From assembly GCA_964494155.1 (NCBI GenBank), contig CAZBQX010000002.1, positions 67,780 through 129,941 of the forward strand: a stretch of 62,162 nt of DNA, given 5' to 3'. The position numbers and the translations under genes were made by a program. This document shows positions 2,575 through 12,211 of this stretch, piece by piece (positions within the stretch are counted from its first letter, which is position 1; every line of letters begins with the position of its first letter). The notes under the pieces were generated by a model, which made no database searches, was not told the DNA's origin, and saw only the letters and a list, made by a program, of their open reading frames with translations. The stretch is from an uncultured Syntrophales bacterium (lineage in GTDB: Bacteria; Desulfobacterota; Syntrophia; Syntrophales; JAAYKM01).

Positions 2575-3198
2575 TCAAGAAATCGGTTTTATGAAAATCT
2601 TTTCAATAATTACCTGACTGTCAGGCACGTCATCCATGAAACCCTTGGGTTGTGTCCTGACCGCCTCGATTTTATCCACTACATCCATGCCGCTTATGAC
2701 TTTACCAAAGACGGTATAACCATATCCTCGGGTTGTCGGGGCGGTGTGGTTCAGGGGATAGTTATCCCGGGTATTGATGAAAAACTGGCACGTCGCCGAA
2801 TGCGGGTTGCCGGTTCTGGCCATGGCGATCGTGCCCCGCTCGTTTTTGAGGCCGTTATTGGCTTCACTGGTGATGGGCTCCCGGGTCGCCTTCTGTTCCA
2901 TCTCCTTGGTGAAACCGCCGCCCTGAATCATGAAGCCATAAATGACGCGATGAAAAATCGTTCCATCGTAGAAATGGTCGCTTACATACTGCAGGAAGTT
3001 TTTGACGGTGTTCGGCGCTTTTTCGGCATTTAGTTCCACTTCGATGTTTCCCATATTGGTCTGGATGACGACCACCGGTGCGACCGGTTGTTCGGCGGCC
3101 TGGGCCGGTACCGATAATGCCAGCAGAATCAGGGAAATCCACAAAGTTATCCGGCTGTTGACCGTGTAAACAGATCTGTGTTGATGTGTTCTTTTCAT
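2575..3198 (-). CDS. ppiA: Cyclophilin-type peptidyl-prolyl cis-trans isomerase with signal peptide
   Basis: FYDGTIFHRVIYGFMIQGGG, GTIAMART, QFFIN, GYTVFGKV; hydrophobic N-terminus ending AQA. Confidence 0.92.
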   Translation of the reverse strand: MKRTHQHRSVYTVNSRITLWISLILLALSVPAQAAEQPVAPVVVIQTNMGNIEVELNAEKAPNTVKNFLQYVSDHFYDGTIFHRVIYGFMIQGGGFTKEMEQKATREPITSEANNGLKNERGTIAMARTGNPHSATCQFFINTRDNYPLNHTAPTTRGYGYTVFGKVISGMDVVDKIEAVRTQPKGFMDDVPDSQVIIEKIFIKPIS

Positions 3199-3237: not shown

Positions 3238-4323
3238 CTACGTTACCCTTCCGTCGAGGATTACATCGGGACCACTGCGGGAAATCTTTTTAAAAGACAG
3301 CTTTAAGGCCTGATTCATGTCGGTGATTCCCAGATTGCCCACTGTGTTCAATCCATCTCCGACGATCTTGGGGGCGACGATGGCCACGATCCGGTCGGCC
3401 AAGCCTTCTCTGAATACGGAGGTGATCATGCCGGCCCCACCTTCGACCAGCAGGGAGGAGATTTTTTTCTGCGCCAGGATCGTGAAAAGCGCTTTCAAGT
3501 CAAACAAATTGCCTTCACTCTGGTTGAAGGGGAGTATTTCCACGCCCAGGGCCTGAATGCGCTTTTGTTTGGCGGGGGCGACTTGCGGACGGGCTACGAT
3601 CAACGTCCGGGCCTGGTCTTGGTCATGGAGCATTTTTGCATCCAGGGGGATCTCCAGGGTCGGATCGATGACGATCCGCAGGGGATTGCGGCCCTTGACA
3701 TGCCGGACTGTCAATTCCGGGTCGTCTTTCAGGACCGTCCCCGCTCCGACCAGCACGGCGTCGTGGAGGCTCCGCAACTGATGGGCATAGCGGCGCGATT
3801 TTTCGCCGCTGATCCATTGGGAGTGCCCTGTTGCCGTGGCGATCCGGCCGTCCAGGGTCTGGGCGAACTTGACCGTTACGTAGGGCCTGCCCGTTTCCAT
3901 GTACTTGATGAAAGTTTCGTTCAGTTCCCGGCAGTCTTTTTCGAGCACGCCTGTGGTGACGTAAATGCCGTGGTTTTTCATCGCGCTGATACTTTTCCCG
4001 GCAACAAGGGGATTGGGATCCACCATACCGATGACGACGCGCTCGAATTGGGCGGCGATGACGCTTTCGATACAGGGCGGGGTTTTTCCATGATGATGGC
4101 AGGGTTCCAGCGTGACATAAAGCGTGGCGCCTTCCAGGGGAACCTTGGCCGCCCGGATGGCGTTGATTTCAGCGTGGGCTTCTCCGTAGCGCTGATGCCA
4201 GCCTTCGGCGATAATCCGATTATATTTGACGATGACCGCACCCACCATGGGGTTGGGACTGACCCAGCCAGTGCCCTTCCGGGCAAGCGTAAGGGCTCGC
4301 TTCATGTAGAATTCGTCGGACAT
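3238..4323 (-). CDS. ribD: Bifunctional riboflavin deaminase/reductase RibD
   Basis: SPNPMVGAVIV, HAE, TLEPCHHHGKTPPC, reductase TLDGRIAT and LLVEGG. Confidence 0.96.
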   Translation of the reverse strand: MSDEFYMKRALTLARKGTGWVSPNPMVGAVIVKYNRIIAEGWHQRYGEAHAEINAIRAAKVPLEGATLYVTLEPCHHHGKTPPCIESVIAAQFERVVIGMVDPNPLVAGKSISAMKNHGIYVTTGVLEKDCRELNETFIKYMETGRPYVTVKFAQTLDGRIATATGHSQWISGEKSRRYAHQLRSLHDAVLVGAGTVLKDDPELTVRHVKGRNPLRIVIDPTLEIPLDAKMLHDQDQARTLIVARPQVAPAKQKRIQALGVEILPFNQSEGNLFDLKALFTILAQKKISSLLVEGGAGMITSVFREGLADRIVAIVAPKIVGDGLNTVGNLGITDMNQALKLSFKKISRSGPDVILDGRVT

Positions 4324-4474
4324 GGGGATGACCTCGCTGAAATTGATGATTGTAATGGCGGTTGATTTGAGGTAACTTATTACAACTTTTCGGGGCGTAT
4401 AAAAAGTTTTTTTTCAGACAACCTTAATTTAATCCGTCGTAAATAAACAAATCAGTCTGCAGGGAGGTTTAAAA

Positions 4475-4906
4475 ATGTTTAATGTGAGAGGCGTGTACAA
4501 AGAGGATCCGTTTGCAGATCTCTACAGGGTTAAATGTTGGTGGTCCCGGCGCATGATGTGGTCTCTGGCGCTTGTGTTCCTTCTCGGGATGATCTTACCC
4601 GGAATGGCCACGGCCCATCCACCCAAAGAAGTTAGCTTGAGCTATGACACGAAGGCGAAAATCCTAAAGGTAAAGATTCTGCACTCATCACCCGCACCGA
4701 GTTGGCATTACATCAAGACCGTTGCTGTTGAGAAAAACAAAAAGCCTGTGGCGACTTACCCTTATCAAAGCCAGCCGGGTAAGGAGTTTACTTATGAATA
4801 CGAAGTTACCGCTCAACCGGGTGACACATTTGTGGTGACCGTCACCTGCAATATGTATGGGTCCCGCACGGAGAGCCTGACCATTCCGGCCGTGGCCAAT
4901 CCGTAA
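4475..4906 (+). CDS. Exported small beta-rich protein with superoxide-reductase-like metal ligand pattern
   Basis: GGGAGG RBS; signal peptide ending ATA-H; H48, H70, H78 (WHYI) and C125-N-M-Y-G; alternative start ATG 4553. Confidence 0.6.
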   Translation: MFNVRGVYKEDPFADLYRVKCWWSRRMMWSLALVFLLGMILPGMATAHPPKEVSLSYDTKAKILKVKILHSSPAPSWHYIKTVAVEKNKKPVATYPYQSQPGKEFTYEYEVTAQPGDTFVVTVTCNMYGSRTESLTIPAVANP

Positions 4907-4941
4907 CGGCACAGAGTGGGGCTGGACCGGAGACCTGGAAG

Positions 4942-5358
4942 GTGAATTCAATGGAATTCTTTTACTATGTACATCTTTTTTTGATGCCCTTGGGTTTTCT
5001 CCTTTTGGCTGCCGGGGTTGTTACGGTACGGTATTTCCGAAAAAAGAAATGGTGGTTTCGCCTCCATAAAACGCTGGGCGTCCTGGCAACAATTTTTTTC
5101 GGGGCAGGAGGGATTGCAGCGGTCTTGATGGTCTATTCCGCAGGGGGAGCCCATTTTGCTGTTCCCCACACCTGGATGGGAGGGGCCGCGATCGTCCTCA
5201 TGATGGGAACCCTGACTGCAGGTTTTGCCCAGACCCGGGTCGTGAACAAAAAACGCATGCGGCTCGTTCACCGCAGTTTGGGGCGAACCGTTGCGGTTCT
5301 GGCGCTGATTGCTGTGATTACGGGGGCGATGGCCGCCGGGATTATACCGGGTCCCTAA
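4942..5358 (+). CDS. Cytochrome b561-like four-helix membrane protein
   Basis: Four hydrophobic segments with His11, His42 (WWFRLH), His76 (PHTWMG) and His110 (VHRSLGR); start may be ATG 4951. Confidence 0.72.
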
Positions 5359-5422
5359 GAGAATATTAACCGGGCTTCTTACAAACACCGAAAACACTCG
5401 AAAACAGAGGAGGTTTAAGGAA

Positions 5423-6034
5423 ATGAAGATTCTGGTCGTTTTTTATTCCGCCTATGGTCACATCTATCAGATGGCCGAGGCAGTGGTTTCCGGAGCAAAA
5501 GAAATACCCGGCGCCGAGGTTTCCCTAAGGCGTGTTCCGGAAACGCTTTCTGATGATTTGCTCAAGAAAATCGGCGCCTTCGAAGCACAAAAAGCATTCG
5601 CGCATGTACCGGTCTGTGCGGTGGAAGAACTGACGGAACCGGACGCGATTATCTTCGGCACCCCGACCCGGTTCGGCAACATGTGCGGACAGATGCGGCA
5701 GTTCCTGGACGGGACCGGCGGCCTCTGGGCGAAAGGGGCTCTGGTCGGCAAGGTGGGGAGCGTTTTCACAAGCTCCGGCACGCAGCACGGCGGCCAGGAA
5801 TCGACAATCCTCAGCGTTCACACGACCCTTCTGCACCAAGGCATGATTATCGTCGGCCTGCCTTACACCTTTACAGAACAGACCCGGACGGATATCGTGG
5901 CGGGTTGTTCTCCCTATGGGGCTTCGACTATTGCGGGCAGCTCGGGTGAGCGGACGCCGAATGAGCCTGAACTGGCCGGGGCGCGCTACCAGGGACGCCA
6001 TGTGGCCACCATCACGGCTAAACTGGTAAGGTAG
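5423..6034 (+). CDS. wrbA: NAD(P)H:quinone oxidoreductase WrbA
   Basis: [39 protein letters not shown]. Confidence 0.95.
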
Positions 6035-6107
6035 TGGGCTTCACGCGTCTCATCAGGAGAGGCGGCGACCCTGAAAAGCAGAAAGACGGAGAAAGGCCGG
6101 TTCGTCC

Positions 6108-7816
6108 ATGTTTCTTCCCACAACGCTGAAAGAGATGAAAGAGCGGGGCTGGGAAGAAGCGGATATCATCCTGGTGACAGGAGACGCCTATATCGACAGT
6201 CCCTTTGTGGGCGTTGCCGTTATCGGCCAAATTCTTATCAGTGCCGGATACCGGGTGGGGATGATCGCACAACCGGATATCAGAAATCCACAAGACATCG
6301 GTCGTCTGGGAAAACCTGCCCTTTTCTGGGGTGTCACCGGCGGCTGCCTGGATTCCATGGTTGCCAATTACACGGCGACAAAAAAAAACGGAACCGCGAT
6401 GATTTTACTCCCGGCGGCCGCAATGTTAAGCGCCCCGACCGGGCGGTTATTACCTACACAAATTTGATCCGTTCACTGCCGGGCGAGAGGGCGTCGATTG
6501 TCTTGGGCGGCGTGGAGGCCAGTCTCCGGAGAATTGCGCACTACGATTACTGGACTGACCGGGTGCGCCGGTCGATCCTCTGTGACGCACCGGCGGATTA
6601 CCTCCTCTACGGCATGGCCGATCAGAGCATTTTGGAACTTGCCGCGGCGTTAAGAACCCGTAGCGATCCCCACAACATCCGTGGGCTCTGCTATCTGTCC
6701 AAGGAGAAAAGGACGGATTACCTGGAGCTGCCTCCTTTTGAGACCGTGTCTTCAGACAAAGACGCCTTCATCCGGATGTTTCAACTCTTTTACGAGCATA
6801 GCGATCCTGTTACCGTCAAAGGCCTTTTGCAACGACAGGACAGCCGTTTCCTGGTTCAGAATCCGCCGGCTTTGCCTCTGAGGCAGGAGGAACTGGATGC
6901 CGTGCATGCCCTGCCGTTCATGAATGACGTTCATCCCTTTTATGGGAAGCAGGGACAGGTCAAGGCGCTGGAAACGATTCAATTTTCTATCTTGACGCAT
7001 CGTGGCTGCTATGGAGAGTGCAGTTTCTGCTCCATCGCCGTCCACCAGGGGCGGATTGTACAGTGGCGGAGCGAAGCGTCCATTCTGGATGAGGCGAGAC
7101 GTTTGGTCGTGCATCCGAAATTCAAGGGATACATCAGTGACGTCGGCGGTCCGACGGCAAACATGTACGGATTTGAGTGTTCAAGAAAGTTGGAGAAGGG
7201 TAGCTGCCGCCGCAAGCGGTGTCTTTTTCCAAAGGTTTGCAATCGGTTACCCGTCAATCATGGCCGACAGAGGTTGTTGCTTTCGAAATTAAGGCGTATT
7301 TCGGGTGTGAAGAAGGTCTTTGTCGCCTCCGGGTTGCGTTACGATCTGCTTCTGTACGACGGTCAGAACGGTCCGGCTTACCTTGAAGAGATCATCGACC
7401 ATCACATATCGGGGCAGTTGAAGGTGGCCCCGGAGCACACGGTGGAACACATCCTCAACCTGATGAAAAAACCGGCGGGATGGCAACTGATCGATTTCAA
7501 AAACATTTTCGATCAGCTAAACCGAAAGAGCCGGAAAAAGCAGTTTTTAACCTACTATTTCATTGCTGCCCATCCGGGATGCCGGGAGCACGATATGGAA
7601 ATCCTGCGATCTTTTGTCCATCGGGAGTTGAACATCCATCCGGAACAGGTTCAGATTTTCACACCTCTTCCTTTGACCTACTCCAGTGTCATGTACTACA
7701 CGGAGAAGGACCCCTTTACGGGGAAAGAAATTTTTGTGGAAAAAAGCATGGCGGGAAAGGAAAGACAGAAACGATGTTTGACCGGGGAGGTGAGGCGTCA
7801 TCGCAGAAGGGACTGA
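6108..7816 (+). pseudogene. ygiQ: YgiQ-family radical SAM protein split by a -1 frameshift at an A9 tract (pseudogene, recoded gene or sequencing error)
   Basis: ORF 6108-6467 has GDAYIDSP and MVANYTA; the -1 frame after A9 (6380-6388) reads RNRDDFTPGG...KRPDRA and joins ORF 6464-7816 with CYGECSFC and QIFTP. Confidence 0.85.
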
Positions 7817-7834
7817 AAAACGACCGAATGGATT

Positions 7835-8674
7835 TCACAGAGAGATTTCCATATCCTGGCGGACCGCAAAGCACTCAAGAACGCGGTTCTGTCCAGAGAT
7901 GATGCGGTGACATGCCTGGACCATGCGGTCGATTCCCCGATCCGGTCGATCCTGGTTATGATGGAACAGGCCGAAGCGGCGGGCATTCGCCTCCAAAGCC
8001 AGCCTCAGCGCATCCTTGTAAACCGAGTGTCCCCAGGCCTTCGTTTTCCTATAGTCCGTTTCCGTATATTCGGCGTCGTGAACCAGCAGGTCCGCATTCC
8101 GGGAAAACTCGAGGTAAGCGTTGTAATCGTGTCCTCCCCTATGTCGATAGGTGAGTTCATTGTCCGTGAGAAAAACGAAGGATTTTCCCTCTTCAGTCAG
8201 ACGGTATCCCACGCCCTGATTGGGATGGCTGAGGGGGATACGGTCAATCGTAACCGAATTGACGGAAAAACGAGTGTTGGTGAATTCGTGGAAATCAATC
8301 TGCGCCCGGACATCGTCCACGTGAACAGGAAAATGCGGCGGCGCCATGATGCCGGCCAGCATATCCTTGGTTGACTTCCGCGTGTTGGGGCATCCGTATA
8401 TGTTCATCCGGGTTGTTTTGAAATAGAGCGGTTTGAAAAAGGGAAATCCCATCACGTGGTCCCAATGGGCGTGCGTCAGGATCAAGGTGATGTCTTGGTT
8501 GCGTTCGGCGATCAGGCGCTGGCCGAGTCTTCGGATACCTGAGCCTGCGTCGATGATAATAATATCACCGTTTTTTGAGCGGACTTCAACGCAGGTTGTA
8601 TCTCCTCCGTAGCGGAGATATTCCCTGCCGCTGACGGGAATGGATCCTCTGGCGCCCCAGCAGCGGATGATCAT
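7835..8674 (-). CDS. MBL-fold metallo-hydrolase
   Basis: WGARGSIP, GGDTTCVEV, IDAGSG, THAHWDH, LVHDAEY, WGHS, FHH. Confidence 0.88.
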   Translation of the reverse strand: MIIRCWGARGSIPVSGREYLRYGGDTTCVEVRSKNGDIIIIDAGSGIRRLGQRLIAERNQDITLILTHAHWDHVMGFPFFKPLYFKTTRMNIYGCPNTRKSTKDMLAGIMAPPHFPVHVDDVRAQIDFHEFTNTRFSVNSVTIDRIPLSHPNQGVGYRLTEEGKSFVFLTDNELTYRHRGGHDYNAYLEFSRNADLLVHDAEYTETDYRKTKAWGHSVYKDALRLALEANARRFGLFHHNQDRPDRGIDRMVQACHRIISGQNRVLECFAVRQDMEISL

Positions 8675-8897: not shown

Positions 8898-9101
8898 ATG
8901 ATGAAGAGCATGATGATCAAAGGGATGTCATGTCAGCATTGCGTAATGGCTGTGACCAAAGCGCTGAACAGTGTGGCGGGCGTGACGGATGTCAAGGTGG
9001 ATTTGGCAACGGGCCGGGCAACTTTTGAGGAAGCGGCGCCTGTCGATATGGCGGCTGCAGCCGCCGCGATCCGAAAGGCGGGTTATGACGTCGCCGAGTA
9101 A
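8898..9101 (+). CDS. copZ: Copper chaperone CopZ-like HMA protein
   Basis: GMSCQHC metal motif, 67 aa, GGAGG RBS, directly upstream of a P1B ATPase. Confidence 0.88.
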
Positions 9102-11556
9102 AGCGGTTTTCCATGTCGGGGGACTGAATTGTGCCGCGTGTGTTCACCGCCTTGAGCAAGGATTGGGCAACCAACCCGGGGTCAGGGAAGCGACCGTTAA
9201 TTTGGTTACGGAACGGGCGACCGTGGTTTATGATCCGACGATAACGGATTCCGATCGACTGGCCAAGGCCGTGGCGGAGATTGGCTATAACGTTCGGATG
9301 GTGGAAGAATCGGACCGCGAAGACCGGCAAAAGCTCACCGTATCCGTGGGGGGAATGACCTGTGCCGCCTGTGTCCGCCGCGTCGAGCAGGCCATTCTTG
9401 CGGTGCCGGGTGTTCGGGACGTGAATGTGAATCTGGCCACGGCGCGAGCATCCTTAACGTATGATTCCCAAATGTGGGGTGGTCTGGAAGCGGTCCGGCG
9501 CGTGATAACCGACGCCGGCTACGAATATCTGGGCATTCCAGATGACATGGGGGACGATCCGATATCGCGGGCCAGGGAGCAGGAAGTCCGGGATTTGAAG
9601 AGACGGGTGGCCGTAGGGGCGGTGCTGAGCGTCATCATTTTCCTGGGCTCCATGCAGCACTGGTTTCCTTTCCTCAATGCGTTTCCCCGCTCTGCGGTGC
9701 TTTACACGCTTTTTATCCTGACGACGCCGGTCGTCTTCTGGGTCGGGGAGCGGTTTTTAGTCGGAGCTTACAAAGCGGCCCGTCAGAAAACGAGCGACAT
9801 GAATACCCTGGTGGCTGTGGGCGCCCTGTCGGCCTATGGCTACTCCACGGCCGCGACGCTTTTCCCAGGGTTATTTACCCAGGCTGATTTAGTCCCCTAT
9901 GTCTATTACGACGGGGCGGCCATGATCATTACCCTGATTCTCCTGGGACGCCTCCTGGAGGCCAAAGCGAAGGGGCGGACATCCCAGGCCATCCGGAAGC
10001 TTATGGATTTAAGACCAAAATTTGCCAGGGTGATCATTGATGGCGAGGATAAAGACGTCCCTGTGGAAAAGCTGGTTACAGGAGACCTGATTCTCATCCG
10101 TCCGGGAGAACAAATTCCCACGGATGGTGTGGTCACCGCCGGTGAATCTTCCGTTGATGAATCCATGTTGACCGGAGAAAGCGTCCCCGTGGAAAAAAAC
10201 GTGGGGAGCAAGGTGTTTGCGGCAACATTGAACAAAACCGGGAGCTTTCAGTTCCGGACGACGGGAATCGGAGCCGATACGGTTTTTGGACAGATCGTCC
10301 ATCTCGTCCAGGAGGCCCAGGGCTCGAAGGCCCCGGTCCAGCGTCTGGCGGACCGAATTGCTTCCATATTTGTGCCCGTCGTTTTTGTCGTGGCCTTGAT
10401 AACTTTCCTTGTCTGGTATTTTCTTGTCCCGAACGCCGCCTTCAGCCGCGCGCTTTTGAATTTCGTCTCCGTTGTCGTCATTGCCTGTCCCTGTGCGCTG
10501 GGATTGGCCACGCCTACGGCGGTGATGGTGGGAACCGGAATTGGAGCTGAGCGGGGGATTCTGATCAAGGGTGGTGAAACCCTGGAAAAGGTCCATCATC
10601 TGACAACGGTGGTTTTTGATAAAACCGGGACGTTGACCCGGGGGGAGCCCGTCGTTCAGGATATCGTGCCGGCCGCAGATACTGCTGCGGAGGATATCCT
10701 GCAAATCGCCCTTTCTGTGGAAGCCGTGTCAGAACACCCTTTGGCGCAGGCGGTCGTTCGTGCGGGGCGCGCCCGGGGCTTAACGCCGCAGCCCCTGGGA
10801 AATTTTGAGGCCGTCTCCGGGAAGGGCGCAAAAGCCGTCATCGATGGAAAAATCTGTCTTGTGGGAAATCTGAGACTGATGGAGGAGATGAACATTTCCC
10901 TCCAAGGCCTGGAGCGCGAAGTCGATGCCCGCTCCGAACGAGGGGAGACCTGTGTTTTTGTGGCATTGTCTGACAGGATGCTGGGGATTGTATCTTTTGC
11001 CGATCAGCCGCGGGAATCCGCGTTGTCGGCGGTCAAGTCGCTCAAACAGATGGGACTGAAACTCATGATGATTACAGGAGACCATCCGGCGACCGCGCAG
11101 GCCGTCGGCCGATCTCTGGGTATAGCTCATATCATGGCCGGTGTTTTGCCCGGTGACAAAGCGAAGACCATACAAGGCCTTCAGGCACAGGGTCAGGTGG
11201 TGGCCATGGTTGGAGATGGAATCAACGATGCTCCGGCCCTTGCTGCAGCCGATATCGGCATTGCCTTAGGCGCCGGGACCGATGTGGCTATGGAAACCAG
11301 CGACATTACACTGATCCGGAATGATCTGGATATGGTTCCTGCGGCAATCCGATTATCCCTGAATACCTTGAAAGTCATCCGCCAGAACCTGTTCTGGGCG
11401 TTTATTTATAATATTGTGGGGATTCCCATTGCGGCAGGTGTTCTATATCCCTTTTGGGGGATACTTCTCAACCCGGAATTTGCCGCAGCGGCCATGGCCT
11501 TGAGTTCGGTTTCCGTGGTGACCAACTCCCTGCGTCTCAGGCGGTTTCCGGTTTAA
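9085..11556 (+). CDS. copA: Copper-translocating P1B-type ATPase
   Basis: Two CAAC HMA domains, [22 protein letters not shown] and MALSS; start set at ATG 9085. Confidence 0.95.
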
Positions 11557-11692: not shown

Positions 11693-12211
11693 ATGATGAG
11701 TGACAGTAGATTGGATGCGTTGAAACGCGCACTGAAAATGGAAGAGGACGGAAAAAAATTCTACGAAAAATGTCTGCGGGAGACTAAAAACGACACCGGT
11801 CGCTGGATGTTCGAGTTCCTGATCCGGGCCGAAGAGTCTCATATAAGAAAATTCAATGAGTTGTACAAAACCCTCGAGAGTTCAGGTAACTGGCCGAAGC
11901 AGGAGACCTCCGAAGCCCGAGATGTGCCGGTCAATATCTTTGCCGAGGCACTGGTAAAAAGCAAGGATAAGGAAGCCGGAACCGCCGATGACATTGAGGC
12001 CATCAAAACGGCGGCCGGGTTTGAGGAAGACGGGATCAAGTATTACCAGTCGCTGGCGGCGGGCGCGACGGATCCCATGGAAAAGAAGTTTTATATGCTT
12101 TTGGTAAATGAAGAGACGGAACATTTTCTCAGCCTGATGGATTCCCTGGCTTTCATGGAAAATCCCCAGCTTTATTACCATCAGAAGGAAATGACGCGGG
12201 GACACTGGTAG
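11693..12211 (+). CDS. Ferritin-like (rubrerythrin/erythrin-type) di-iron protein
   Basis: Duplicated E..(FY) and ExxH motifs: MEEDGKKFY/AEESH and FEEDGIKYY/EETEH; no rubredoxin domain. Confidence 0.85.
   Translation: MMSDSRLDALKRALKMEEDGKKFYEKCLRETKNDTGRWMFEFLIRAEESHIRKFNELYKTLESSGNWPKQETSEARDVPVNIFAEALVKSKDKEAGTADDIEAIKTAAGFEEDGIKYYQSLAAGATDPMEKKFYMLLVNEETEHFLSLMDSLAFMENPQLYYHQKEMTRGHW

Follow-up and report, generated by a model that had tools for sequence, protein, structure and literature searches.

A putative transmembrane electron conduit formed by an exported β-sandwich protein, a four-helix cytochrome b561 and WrbA in an uncultured Syntrophales bacterium

The DNA analyzed here is a stretch of 62,162 nucleotides from an uncultured Syntrophales bacterium (contig CAZBQX010000002.1, positions 67,780 to 129,941), referred to below as the window. 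It carries three co-oriented genes that may together move electrons from the cytoplasm to the periplasm. The genes encode an exported β-sandwich protein (open reading frame 1, ORF1), a minimal cytochrome b561 (ORF2) and WrbA (ORF3), and their coordinates are given in Table 1. All three ORFs had been proposed in an initial annotation made from the sequence alone and all three were confirmed, with the start of ORF2 corrected from 4942 to 4951. The ORF2 homologues are all 135 amino acids long and begin with M-E-x-F-F, and a GGAAGG precedes the ATG at 4951. The uniform length indicates that this ATG, rather than the GTG at 4942, is the true start. The intergenic gaps are 35 bp between ORF1 and ORF2 (44 bp when measured to the ATG) and 64 bp between ORF2 and wrbA.

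Strict anaerobes are thought to resist oxygen mainly in the cytoplasm, using superoxide reductase (SOR), rubrerythrin and rubredoxin. Protection of the envelope, and the outward delivery of electrons without multihaem cytochromes, are poorly understood. No description of the three-gene system came up in full-text literature searches that combined SOR or desulfoferrodoxin, b561, DOMON, WrbA and the host taxa, and the initial annotation likewise knew of none. What is new is the ORF1 domain family and its trio; electron transfer across the membrane by a b561-type protein to an extracytoplasmic domain is known.

ORF2 is a minimal four-helix cytochrome b561. The Pfam model PF03188 matched residues 10-130 of 138 with 34.2 bits, above the gathering threshold (GA) of 23, and all of the homologues carry the PF03188 domain. 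PF01292, the prokaryotic b561 model, matched with E=0.61 only. The AlphaFold2 (AF2) model has four long helices at a predicted local distance difference test (pLDDT) score of 80.6. Foldseek ranked A. thaliana b561 (4o6y/4o7g) first, with TMq 0.77-0.82 and 22-24% identity, and found human Dcytb (5zle) at TMq 0.78. The four helices correspond to the core of 4o6y formed by transmembrane (TM) helices 2-5, and ORF2 does not have the six-TM architecture of b561. A profile made from eight ORF2-type partners (down to 35% identity) was then searched against the PDB and retrieved 4o6y at E=0.0047. In the profile alignment each of four ORF2 His residues stands opposite a His of 4o6y.

In b561 proteins the four aligned His are the conserved haem-ligating residues. 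His8, His39, His73 and His107 of ORF2 are invariant in partners down to 35% identity, while a fifth, His68, is less conserved. These are the four spaced His that had been numbered 11, 42, 76 and 110 from the earlier start, so the description of a 4-TM b561 with four spaced His held up on the Pfam cut-off, on conservation and on alignment with the plant protein. Orientation was judged from the distribution of Lys plus Arg, which number 7 in loop 1, 7 in loop 3 and 0 in the termini and loop 2. The bias makes loops 1 and 3 strongly basic inner loops and places the N-terminus, and the C-terminus too, outside. The same orientation follows independently from natural fusions, where helix 1 comes after the exported domain. 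His8 and His73 are predicted to lie at the outer membrane face and His39 and His107 at the inner face, an arrangement that we take to be the same as that in helices 2-5 of plant b561.

ORF1 begins with a polar n-region of 25 residues containing S-R-R, followed by a hydrophobic core and then A-T-A before H-P-P. This looks like a cleavable signal peptide that would be cut before His48. The twin arginine of the window protein is not conserved among close homologues, so export is probably by the Sec system. A word-index search with ORF1 yielded just ten close relatives. When 1.84 billion representatives were searched with a profile, 1524 clusters matched at E<=0.001, of which 677 reached E<=1e-10. 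The ORF1 domain defines a large uncatalogued family of ~1500 clusters at 50% identity. Library scans found no model for it in Pfam or NCBIfam, and database labels of the homologues are hypothetical except for two JGI entries called 'desulfoferrodoxin (superoxide reductase-like protein)'.

His70, His78, Gln100, Cys125 and Gly129 are invariant among 68 to 111 diverse homologues, and Tyr97 is invariant among the 111. The invariance of His70, His78 and Cys125 bears out the earlier description of a metal-ligand pattern in the exported protein. In 64% of the family a His comes directly after the A-x-A cleavage motif; the remaining members have Asn, Thr or Asp there, and this residue is always followed by [PAS]-P. 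The ORF1 domain is a seven-strand sandwich in the AF2 model (pLDDT ~96). Judging from the strand order, His48, His70, His78, the Cys125-Gly129 segment and the Tyr97-Gln100 loop would lie at one pole.

Two folds compete as the nearest relative of this domain. Foldseek matched the ORF1 model to 1Fe-SORs at E values of 5e-4 to 8e-3 with TM scores of 0.45-0.6, and SoxZ matched equally well; the top matches have E ~5e-4 and TM scores of 0.5-0.6 on the target. In the sequence comparisons, 26/68 ORF1 family members gave sub-threshold matches to the SOR model PF01880. A local hidden Markov model (HMM) built from three archaeal SORs gave marginal matches, yet aligned the Cys loop consistently. When the ORF1 family profile was searched against PDB sequences (E<=10), only chance PX-domain matches were obtained, and no SOR, CopC, YcnI or cupredoxin. 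The SoxZ model TIGR04490 gave ORF1 12.1 bits against a cut-off of 76, and the Pfam SoxZ model was below threshold in all members. No SoxY-like gene was found in the neighbourhoods examined, and the window encodes no canonical SOR.

The register of the putative metal ligands was mapped by scanning truncated P. furiosus SOR sequences (identical to 1do6) against PF01880. SOR ending at Gly115 reached column 93 and SOR ending at His41 reached column 36, with residue 9 on column 2. These ends put SOR His16 on column 9 and Cys111 on column 89. ORF1 residues 63-129 align to columns 24-93, with Gly129 on column 93 and Cys125 on column 89. In the family member P0071, residues 19-102 align to columns 8-93, which puts its N-terminal His20 on column 9 and Gly102 on column 93. 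The 47 residues between His78 and Cys125 equal the 47 columns that separate SOR His47 and Cys111. The His48-His70 (22) and His70-His78 (8) spacings fit one 5-column deletion (the G-K-E-I-P loop) plus a 2-residue insertion. By this alignment, ORF1 keeps in register the Cys of the SOR iron site and three of its four His ligands.

Linkage of ORF1 to b561 was examined across genomes. Loci were collected with a degenerate DNA pattern for H-x7-H-Y-[IV]..[IV].[IV].[KR]-N-G in one genome per species, which returned 120 loci. About 115/120 carry an ORF1 domain, and the sample is biased toward that motif. Neighbourhoods of the 120 pattern loci, 13 other loci and the window were scored with local HMMs. 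A b561 gene was <=400 bp downstream in 31 occurrences, fused in 9 and nearby in 2; 80 were without b561 and 17 were contig ends. After clustering the domains at 70% identity, 29/79 clusters (~37%) were b561-linked. An iterated b561 HMM found no further divergent b561 beside the members scored as lacking one. N-terminal His is commoner in b561-linked members (26/29) than in others (39/76, p=2.5e-4).

Natural fusions strengthen the link. Among the best 150 representatives of the 1524 clusters, 13 are single polypeptides in which the ORF1 domain is followed by a four-helix b561. Four of the 13 (P0097, P0102, P0134 and P0155) also carry immunoglobulin (Ig) repeats and a DOMON domain (PF03351) before b561. 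The initial annotation had pointed to the eukaryotic fusions of b561 to DOMON, and DOMON-b561 fusions occur within the ORF1 family too; a Pfam scan found no DOMON in ORF1 or ORF2 of the window. The nine fusions in the sampled loci are all archaeal (Methanomicrobiales, Thermoplasmatota, Hadarchaeota). The split pairs are bacterial, from Syntrophales and relatives, a Planctomycetota metagenome-assembled genome (MAG) and a MAG labelled Bacteriovoracaceae.

An exact-sequence look-up of nine database proteins found b561 downstream in L005/L006, L009, L012 and L013, a frameshifted b561 in L010, and no b561 in L007/L008 or L011. The closest relatives of the window share the entire ribD-to-copA neighbourhood and are uninformative alone. 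The pair also occurs in unrelated contexts (L005, L009, L013, L019, L038). The neighbourhood survey proposed in the initial annotation therefore found the two genes together, adjacent or fused. Adjacency in many contexts and natural fusions are strong evidence that ORF1 and b561 are a functional pair. As a side observation, the L010 b561 (4441-4938) matches the family in its first 60 residues and then diverges, and the fused b561 of P0129 does likewise; these breaks are probably frameshift assembly errors in high-GC contigs.

ORF3 is WrbA, as first annotated. It matched the NCBIfam models NF002999 (321.2 bits, cut-off 141) and TIGR01755 (299.7 bits, cut-off 132.5) over residues 1-202, which is an equivalog-level, full-length match. 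At 70% clustering, a same-strand wrbA lies within 3 kb in 7/29 b561-linked clusters versus 1/50 others (p=0.003), and at 90% clustering in 10/36 versus 1/73 (p=5e-5). In nearly all of these loci wrbA follows b561. It is directly downstream of b561 in the window clade, in L012 and in the Methanoregulaceae/Methanolinea fusion loci L049, L062 and L064. It is one gene beyond b561 in L016, L027 and L037, and ~600 bp beyond in L055 and L129. In L014 wrbA precedes an ORF1-type gene and there is no b561. Membership of WrbA in the trio thus stands on a shared RNA contig (see below) and on recurrence across several bacterial and archaeal lineages, and is qualified by the fact that only about a quarter of b561-linked loci have the gene. 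The WrbA-b561 association is real but partial.

The archaeal fusion loci bear on how WrbA might reach b561. Methanomicrobiales lack respiratory quinones, and the order is usually described as lacking cytochromes. The absence of respiratory quinones means that these loci favour direct transfer from WrbA to b561 over the quinone step that the initial annotation had assumed. In L049 (fusion at 1477-2277, WrbA at 796-1410), L062 and L064 the fused ORF1 domain and b561 are followed by WrbA; the L049 fusion, from Methanoregulaceae, is 266 amino acids long. The MAGs are assigned to Methanoregulaceae and Methanolinea, with one labelled only Methanobacteriota. The fused proteins imply a haem b protein in an order regarded as cytochrome-free.

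Transcription was examined in two sludge-reactor metatranscriptomes, which contain 87-90% of sampled words of the window stretch. In RNA run X2 one contig, 4407-6586, runs from the ORF1 leader through ORF1, ORF2 and wrbA and 480 nt into ygiQ. It has a depth of 39, versus 15-18 for ribD, 10 for the rest of ygiQ, 23 for the metallo-β-lactamase (MBL) gene and 8-13 for copZ/copA. Depth in the DNA run is flat across the region (~108-120). RNA is absent from 4353-4406, and the operon contig of RNA run X3 begins at 4399. This pattern indicates an operon starting near 4400. A consensus promoter and terminator scan found nothing above shuffled sequences and no terminator between the three genes. The trio forms one transcription unit that probably extends into ygiQ.

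The region between the divergent ribD and ORF1 genes contains a 75-nt block that is ~90% identical among loci whose ORF1 proteins are merely 59-63% identical. Inside it is an inverted repeat, TTGTAAT-N22-ATTACAA (4350-4356 / 4379-4385), and the end of the block coincides with the starts of the operon RNA contigs (4399-4407). An Rfam scan of the block found no flavin mononucleotide (FMN) riboswitch or other RNA family match. In its sequence the block looks like a shared operator/promoter for a regulator.

We propose that the trio is a cytoplasm-to-periplasm electron conduit running from WrbA through b561 to ORF1, with a superoxide/O2-type oxidant as the likeliest substrate, and we favour this reading by a narrow balance of the evidence. 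WrbA, a cytoplasmic FMN protein, would take electrons from NAD(P)H and hand them to the inner haem of b561 (His39/His107), either directly or via menaquinol. The electrons would cross to the outer haem (His8/His73) and pass to the 96-residue exported β-sandwich of ORF1, docked on the outer face of b561. There a mononuclear redox metal site could be formed by His48 (possibly with its free amine), His70, His78 and Cys125, which is the SOR ligand topology minus the fourth His. The reduced site would then reduce an extracytoplasmic oxidant, in a strict anaerobe most likely superoxide or another O2-derived species. What we infer is that haem and metal are bound, which way the electrons flow, that WrbA passes them to b561, and what the substrate is. 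The parts differ in probability. That the genes form a transmembrane electron conduit of some kind is likely, and for WrbA as its electron input the case is evenly balanced. Superoxide or O2 as substrate is a tentative assignment; superoxide/O2 defence is suggested by the SOR-type ligand topology, by the strictly anaerobic hosts and by neighbours that include rubredoxin-like, cytochrome bd and Redoxin proteins and WrbA.

A number of observations weigh against this reading. With PF01880, ORF1 scored 13.3 bits against a GA of 22.2, and the best family member reached 17.1 bits. Alignment of the ORF1 family with a profile of three archaeal SORs using hhalign gave a probability of 1%, the profile being thin. 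SoxZ, which is metal-free, equals SOR by fold score. The fourth SOR His (H114, in C-N-x-H-G) is Tyr in ORF1, Phe, Tyr, Ala, Gly or Ser in the family, and His in 1 of ~160 members. The SOR motif Glu-Lys-His-x-Pro is missing, and the A-x-A cleavage site occupies the place of Glu-Lys. Because the fourth His is absent and the score is below the PF01880 threshold, ORF1 is not a member of the SOR family as defined. The earlier term 'SOR-like' is therefore kept here for fold and ligand topology and dropped for the family threshold, the fourth His and the Glu-Lys motif. ORF1 most probably shares the fold and the metal-site position of SOR. Speculatively, the free N-terminal amine of His48 could replace the missing fourth nitrogen. 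With probable Sec export the metal would be loaded outside, a route no less compatible with Cu than with Fe.

Further points against the reading concern the partners. About 60% of ORF1 family members have no nearby b561. Long archaeal proteins place four or five Ig repeats between the ORF1 domain and DOMON-b561, and such stalks are awkward for direct electron transfer, at least in some members. wrbA was not found at the remaining three quarters, approximately, of the b561-linked loci; its enrichment weakens to p=0.075 at 60% clustering, and both the search pattern and the presence of related lineages bias the sample. The RNA contigs are assemblies without strand information and may contain DNA.

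A stronger version of the proposal is that ORF1 founds a new class of extracytoplasmic, membrane-powered superoxide/O2 reductases, with the His48 amine as the fourth nitrogen of an N4S centre and b561 fed by WrbA. We regard this as rather unlikely in its full form. Metal handling, in place of defence against reactive oxygen, is an unlikely alternative as well. ORF1 would be a periplasmic Cu- (or Fe-) binding protein with a histidine-brace-like site at its N-terminus plus His/Cys ligands, and b561 would be a Dcytb-like cupric/ferric reductase of the ORF1-bound Cu(II)/Fe(III), serving detoxification with CopZ/CopA, or uptake. The predicted mature N-terminus His-Pro-Pro is strongly conserved beside the A-x-A site, yet the N-terminal residue is Thr, Asn or Asp in about a third of the family. 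The apparent Sec-type export of most members is typical of proteins metallated outside the cell, and Dcytb, which the b561 model matches, is a ferric/cupric reductase. The window, L001-L004, L010, L012 and L088 have copZ-copA or HMA genes no more than a few kb away; however, these genes occur only in related Syntrophales loci, on either strand, and may be residual synteny. Weak CopC matches were found in 3/68 members, whereas the 50 fold matches listed and the PDB profile matches mentioned above include no CopC, YcnI or cupredoxin, and the ligand topology follows SOR rather than CopC.

It is improbable that the domain, instead of being a detoxifying enzyme, serves electron exchange at the cell surface in syntrophy, as an outward- or inward-facing redox relay between b561 (or other membrane carriers) and minerals, shuttles or partners outside the cell. 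Organisms that take part in methanogenic consortia (Smithella/Syntrophales, Methanothrix, Methanoregula/Methanolinea, Thermoplasmatota and Asgard archaea) are where the family is concentrated. Many archaeal members are anchored to the surface or form the tip of an Ig-repeat stalk that also has DOMON and b561, and the domain is fused or adjacent to pyrroloquinoline quinone (PQQ)-type GSDH dehydrogenases, which require an electron acceptor. This case is purely circumstantial. A 10-kDa domain with one mononuclear site would conduct poorly over long distances, the loci examined show no association with pili or multihaem cytochromes, and the Methanothrix copies have no nearby b561.

A role as a sulfur carrier is very unlikely. 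ORF1 would act like SoxZ/SoxY, with a persulfide or thiosulfonate on Cys125 from which b561 electrons release sulfide. SoxZ is the top Foldseek match, and weak SoxZ Pfam matches occur in 15/68 members (best 1.3e-4), but there is no SoxY-like partner and no GGCGG motif. Sulfur genes are present at some loci: rhodanese and MBL-rhodanese genes upstream in L012, a rhodanese near the L009-type locus and, in L016, an ORF between b561 and wrbA that by eye resembles NifS/IscS. They are not recurrent, and a thiol carrier leaves the two invariant His and the N-terminal His unexplained.

ORF1 is most improbably a canonical SOR exported by twin-arginine translocation (Tat). SORGOdb predicts seven such 'TAT-SORs' in deltaproteobacteria, and the class is defined by, and carries, a complete active site II (PMC3116461). 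S-R-R precedes the hydrophobic core of the window protein and the two JGI labels mention desulfoferrodoxin, but the RR motif is not conserved among close homologues, PF01880 is below threshold, and the near-total absence of the C-N-x-H-G His, the missing fourth ligand, contradicts the assignment. Finally, chance proximity of three unrelated genes, suggested by the ribD-to-copA synteny shared among the closest relatives, is refuted for ORF1 and b561 by the natural fusions and unrelated contexts, and is opposed for the trio by the wrbA/b561 cluster statistics and the shared transcript.

The proposed conduit can be compared with known systems. ORF2 is predicted to have the same four-helix, two-haem core as eukaryotic b561 and CYBDOM proteins (PF03188; A. 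thaliana CYB561B2 4o6y, Dcytb 5zle), with four His on consecutive helices. It differs in having 4 TM helices, not 6. As the protein is prokaryotic, ascorbate is unlikely as its donor, unlike in eukaryotic b561. As is proposed for the trio, CYBDOM proteins carry electrons across the membrane to an extracytoplasmic β-sandwich, and relatives of ORF1 share a polypeptide with DOMON and b561. In the window, by contrast, the outer partner is separate and has a SOR-type fold with putative His/Cys ligands instead of a haem-binding DOMON. With SOR itself (neelaredoxin and desulfoferrodoxin centre II; 1do6, 4d7p) ORF1 has in common a predicted Ig-like β-sandwich, the C-N-x-x-G loop and strict-anaerobe hosts. 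Unlike SOR it is exported rather than cytoplasmic, lacks H114 and Glu14/Lys15, and its donor would be a membrane cytochrome rather than rubredoxin. SoxZ (PF08770; 2oxg), the closest fold match at equal rank with SOR, differs in having no metal site and in its partner SoxY; there are no SoxY or other sox genes in the window locus.

Other systems resemble the trio in logic. In E. coli MsrPQ (YedYZ), a cytosolic NADH flavin reductase supplies the membrane b-haem protein MsrQ, which supplies periplasmic MsrP, to control oxidative damage in the envelope (PMC12525009). The logic is that of WrbA-b561-ORF1, whereas the parts are different: MsrQ, which binds FMN, is from the NOX/STEAP ferric-reductase-domain superfamily, MsrP is a molybdoenzyme, and neither is related in sequence to ORF1 or ORF2. 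The 'standard' redox system of the plant plasma membrane runs from a WrbA-type NAD(P)H:quinone oxidoreductase through vitamin K to cytochrome b561 (PMC9137787). It has the same three kinds of component in the same proposed electron order as the window trio, but it is eukaryotic, its genes are unclustered, its apoplastic acceptor is different, and the system has itself been established in part only. CybB, the superoxide oxidase of E. coli (PF01292), is a four-helix di-haem membrane protein that deals with periplasmic superoxide and is coupled to the quinone pool. It differs from ORF2 in belonging to another family, in oxidizing superoxide directly at haem and in having no exported partner.

The module offers a testable answer to the questions of envelope protection and outward electron delivery, a four-helix b561 of 'eukaryotic type' paired with a small exported putative metalloprotein. 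The ORF1-b561 arrangement is conserved from Syntrophales to Methanomicrobiales, Thermoplasmatota and Hadarchaeota, and the family shows active-site variation, with the fourth SOR His lost and the first His at the processed N-terminus. WrbA, whose physiological role is debated, gains a concrete genomic partner, and the plant quinone reductase-b561 system and CYBDOM proteins gain a prokaryotic counterpart. If the stronger version of the proposal is right, a membrane-powered superoxide/O2 reductase would be the missing envelope-side defence of strict anaerobes against reactive oxygen species, and a haem b561 protein would be placed in Methanomicrobiales, which are regarded as cytochrome-free methanogens.

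Table 1. Features of the ORF1-ORF2-wrbA locus and its surroundings (positions in the window).
Feature	Positions	Strand	Description
ORF1	4475-4906	+	143 aa; exported SOR/SoxZ-fold β-sandwich; domain pLDDT ~96; top Foldseek matches SoxZ and 1Fe-SOR
ORF1 signal peptide, aa 1-47	4475-4615	+	Predicted; mature domain from His48
Shine-Dalgarno GGGAGG	4462-4467	+	7 nt 5' of the ORF1 ATG; read from sequence
ORF1 His48 codon	4616-4618	+	Predicted first mature residue (A-x-A then H-P-P); column-equivalent of SOR H16
ORF1 His70 codon	4682-4684	+	Invariant; equivalent of SOR H41
ORF1 His78 codon	4706-4708	+	H-Y-I motif, invariant; equivalent of SOR H47
ORF1 Cys125 codon	4847-4849	+	C-N-M-Y-G, invariant; PF01880 column 89, as SOR C111; Tyr128 replaces the fourth SOR His
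ORF2	4951-5358	+	135 aa; minimal four-helix cytochrome b561; alternative GTG at 4942
ORF2 His8 codon	4972-4974	+	Predicted outer-haem axial pair with His73; invariant, aligned to a His of 4o6y
ORF2 His39 codon	5065-5067	+	Predicted inner-haem axial pair with His107; invariant, aligned to a His of 4o6y
ORF2 His73 codon	5167-5169	+	Predicted outer haem (periplasmic side); invariant, aligned to a His of 4o6y
ORF2 His107 codon	5269-5271	+	Predicted inner haem (cytoplasmic side); invariant, aligned to a His of 4o6y
wrbA (ORF3)	5423-6034	+	203 aa; FMN-dependent NAD(P)H:quinone oxidoreductase type IV; candidate cytoplasmic electron input
YgiQ-family radical SAM gene	6108-7816	+	73 bp 3' of wrbA; possible fourth operon gene
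MBL-fold hydrolase gene	7835-8674	-	279 aa; loosely associated with the ORF1-b561 pair
ribD	3238-4323	-	Divergent from ORF1
Conserved intergenic block	4339-4414	no strand	Candidate promoter/operator between divergent ribD and ORF1

Among the other neighbours of the ORF1 family, the MBL-fold gene is the commonest beside the ORF1-b561 pair in Syntrophales, usually immediately upstream on the same strand. It occurs in 11/29 b561-linked clusters versus 1/50 others, and was found in L005, L010, L012, L029, L071, L088, L105, L115, L120 and L123. In the window it has the opposite orientation and a position 2.9 kb downstream. The hydrolase has weak similarity to RNase Z and cyclic-nucleotide phosphodiesterase. 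Cytochrome bd subunit I is a neighbour at 6 loci and a Redoxin/AhpC protein at L011. A PQQ-type GSDH dehydrogenase (PF07995) is found at 12 Thermoplasmatota loci (including L084, 420-2006) and is fused to the domain in P0173, which hints that in those archaea the ORF1 domain may accept or relay electrons from an extracellular dehydrogenase.

Seven Smithella/Syntrophaceae loci (L017, 4196-4756; L030, L047, L059, L093, L104 and L117) have a gene for a 186-amino acid protein directly upstream of one or two tandem ORF1-type genes. The protein has an N-terminal rubredoxin-like domain (PF21349) and a multi-TM part with H-T-H-P-x-x-x-H, and the mature N-terminus of the tandem ORF1-type proteins is Thr, Asp or Asn. 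This membrane protein may be a second candidate transmembrane electron donor for the ORF1 domain.

ygiQ is 3' of the pair in L001-L004, L010, L029 and L105, and directly 3' of ORF1 in L071. In the window a frameshift in an A9 run at 6380-6388 divides it into two ORFs that overlap, 6108-6467 and 6464-7816, and one extra A restores an intact YgiQ ORF of 569 amino acids. RNA run X2 has the extra A and RNA run X3 has one A fewer, while contigs of the DNA run X1 break ~6 nt upstream of the A9 run, at 6385/6386. The tract is either a homopolymer-length error or a variable tract.

Downstream of the cluster, at 8898-11556, are copZ and copA, the latter for a Cu-exporting P-type ATPase of CopA type that has two HMA domains at its N-terminus. 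In its longest form, from 8989, the copA ORF overlaps copZ, and the copA start is therefore probably downstream of 8989. After copA there is a 172-amino acid ferritin-like/rubrerythrin-type four-helix protein (11693-12211), with weak NCBIfam matches only. Upstream of ribD are genes for a universal stress protein and a cyclophilin-type peptidyl-prolyl isomerase that bears a signal peptide (1753-2247 and 2575-3198, both on the minus strand), and both are retained in the syntenic relatives L001-L004.

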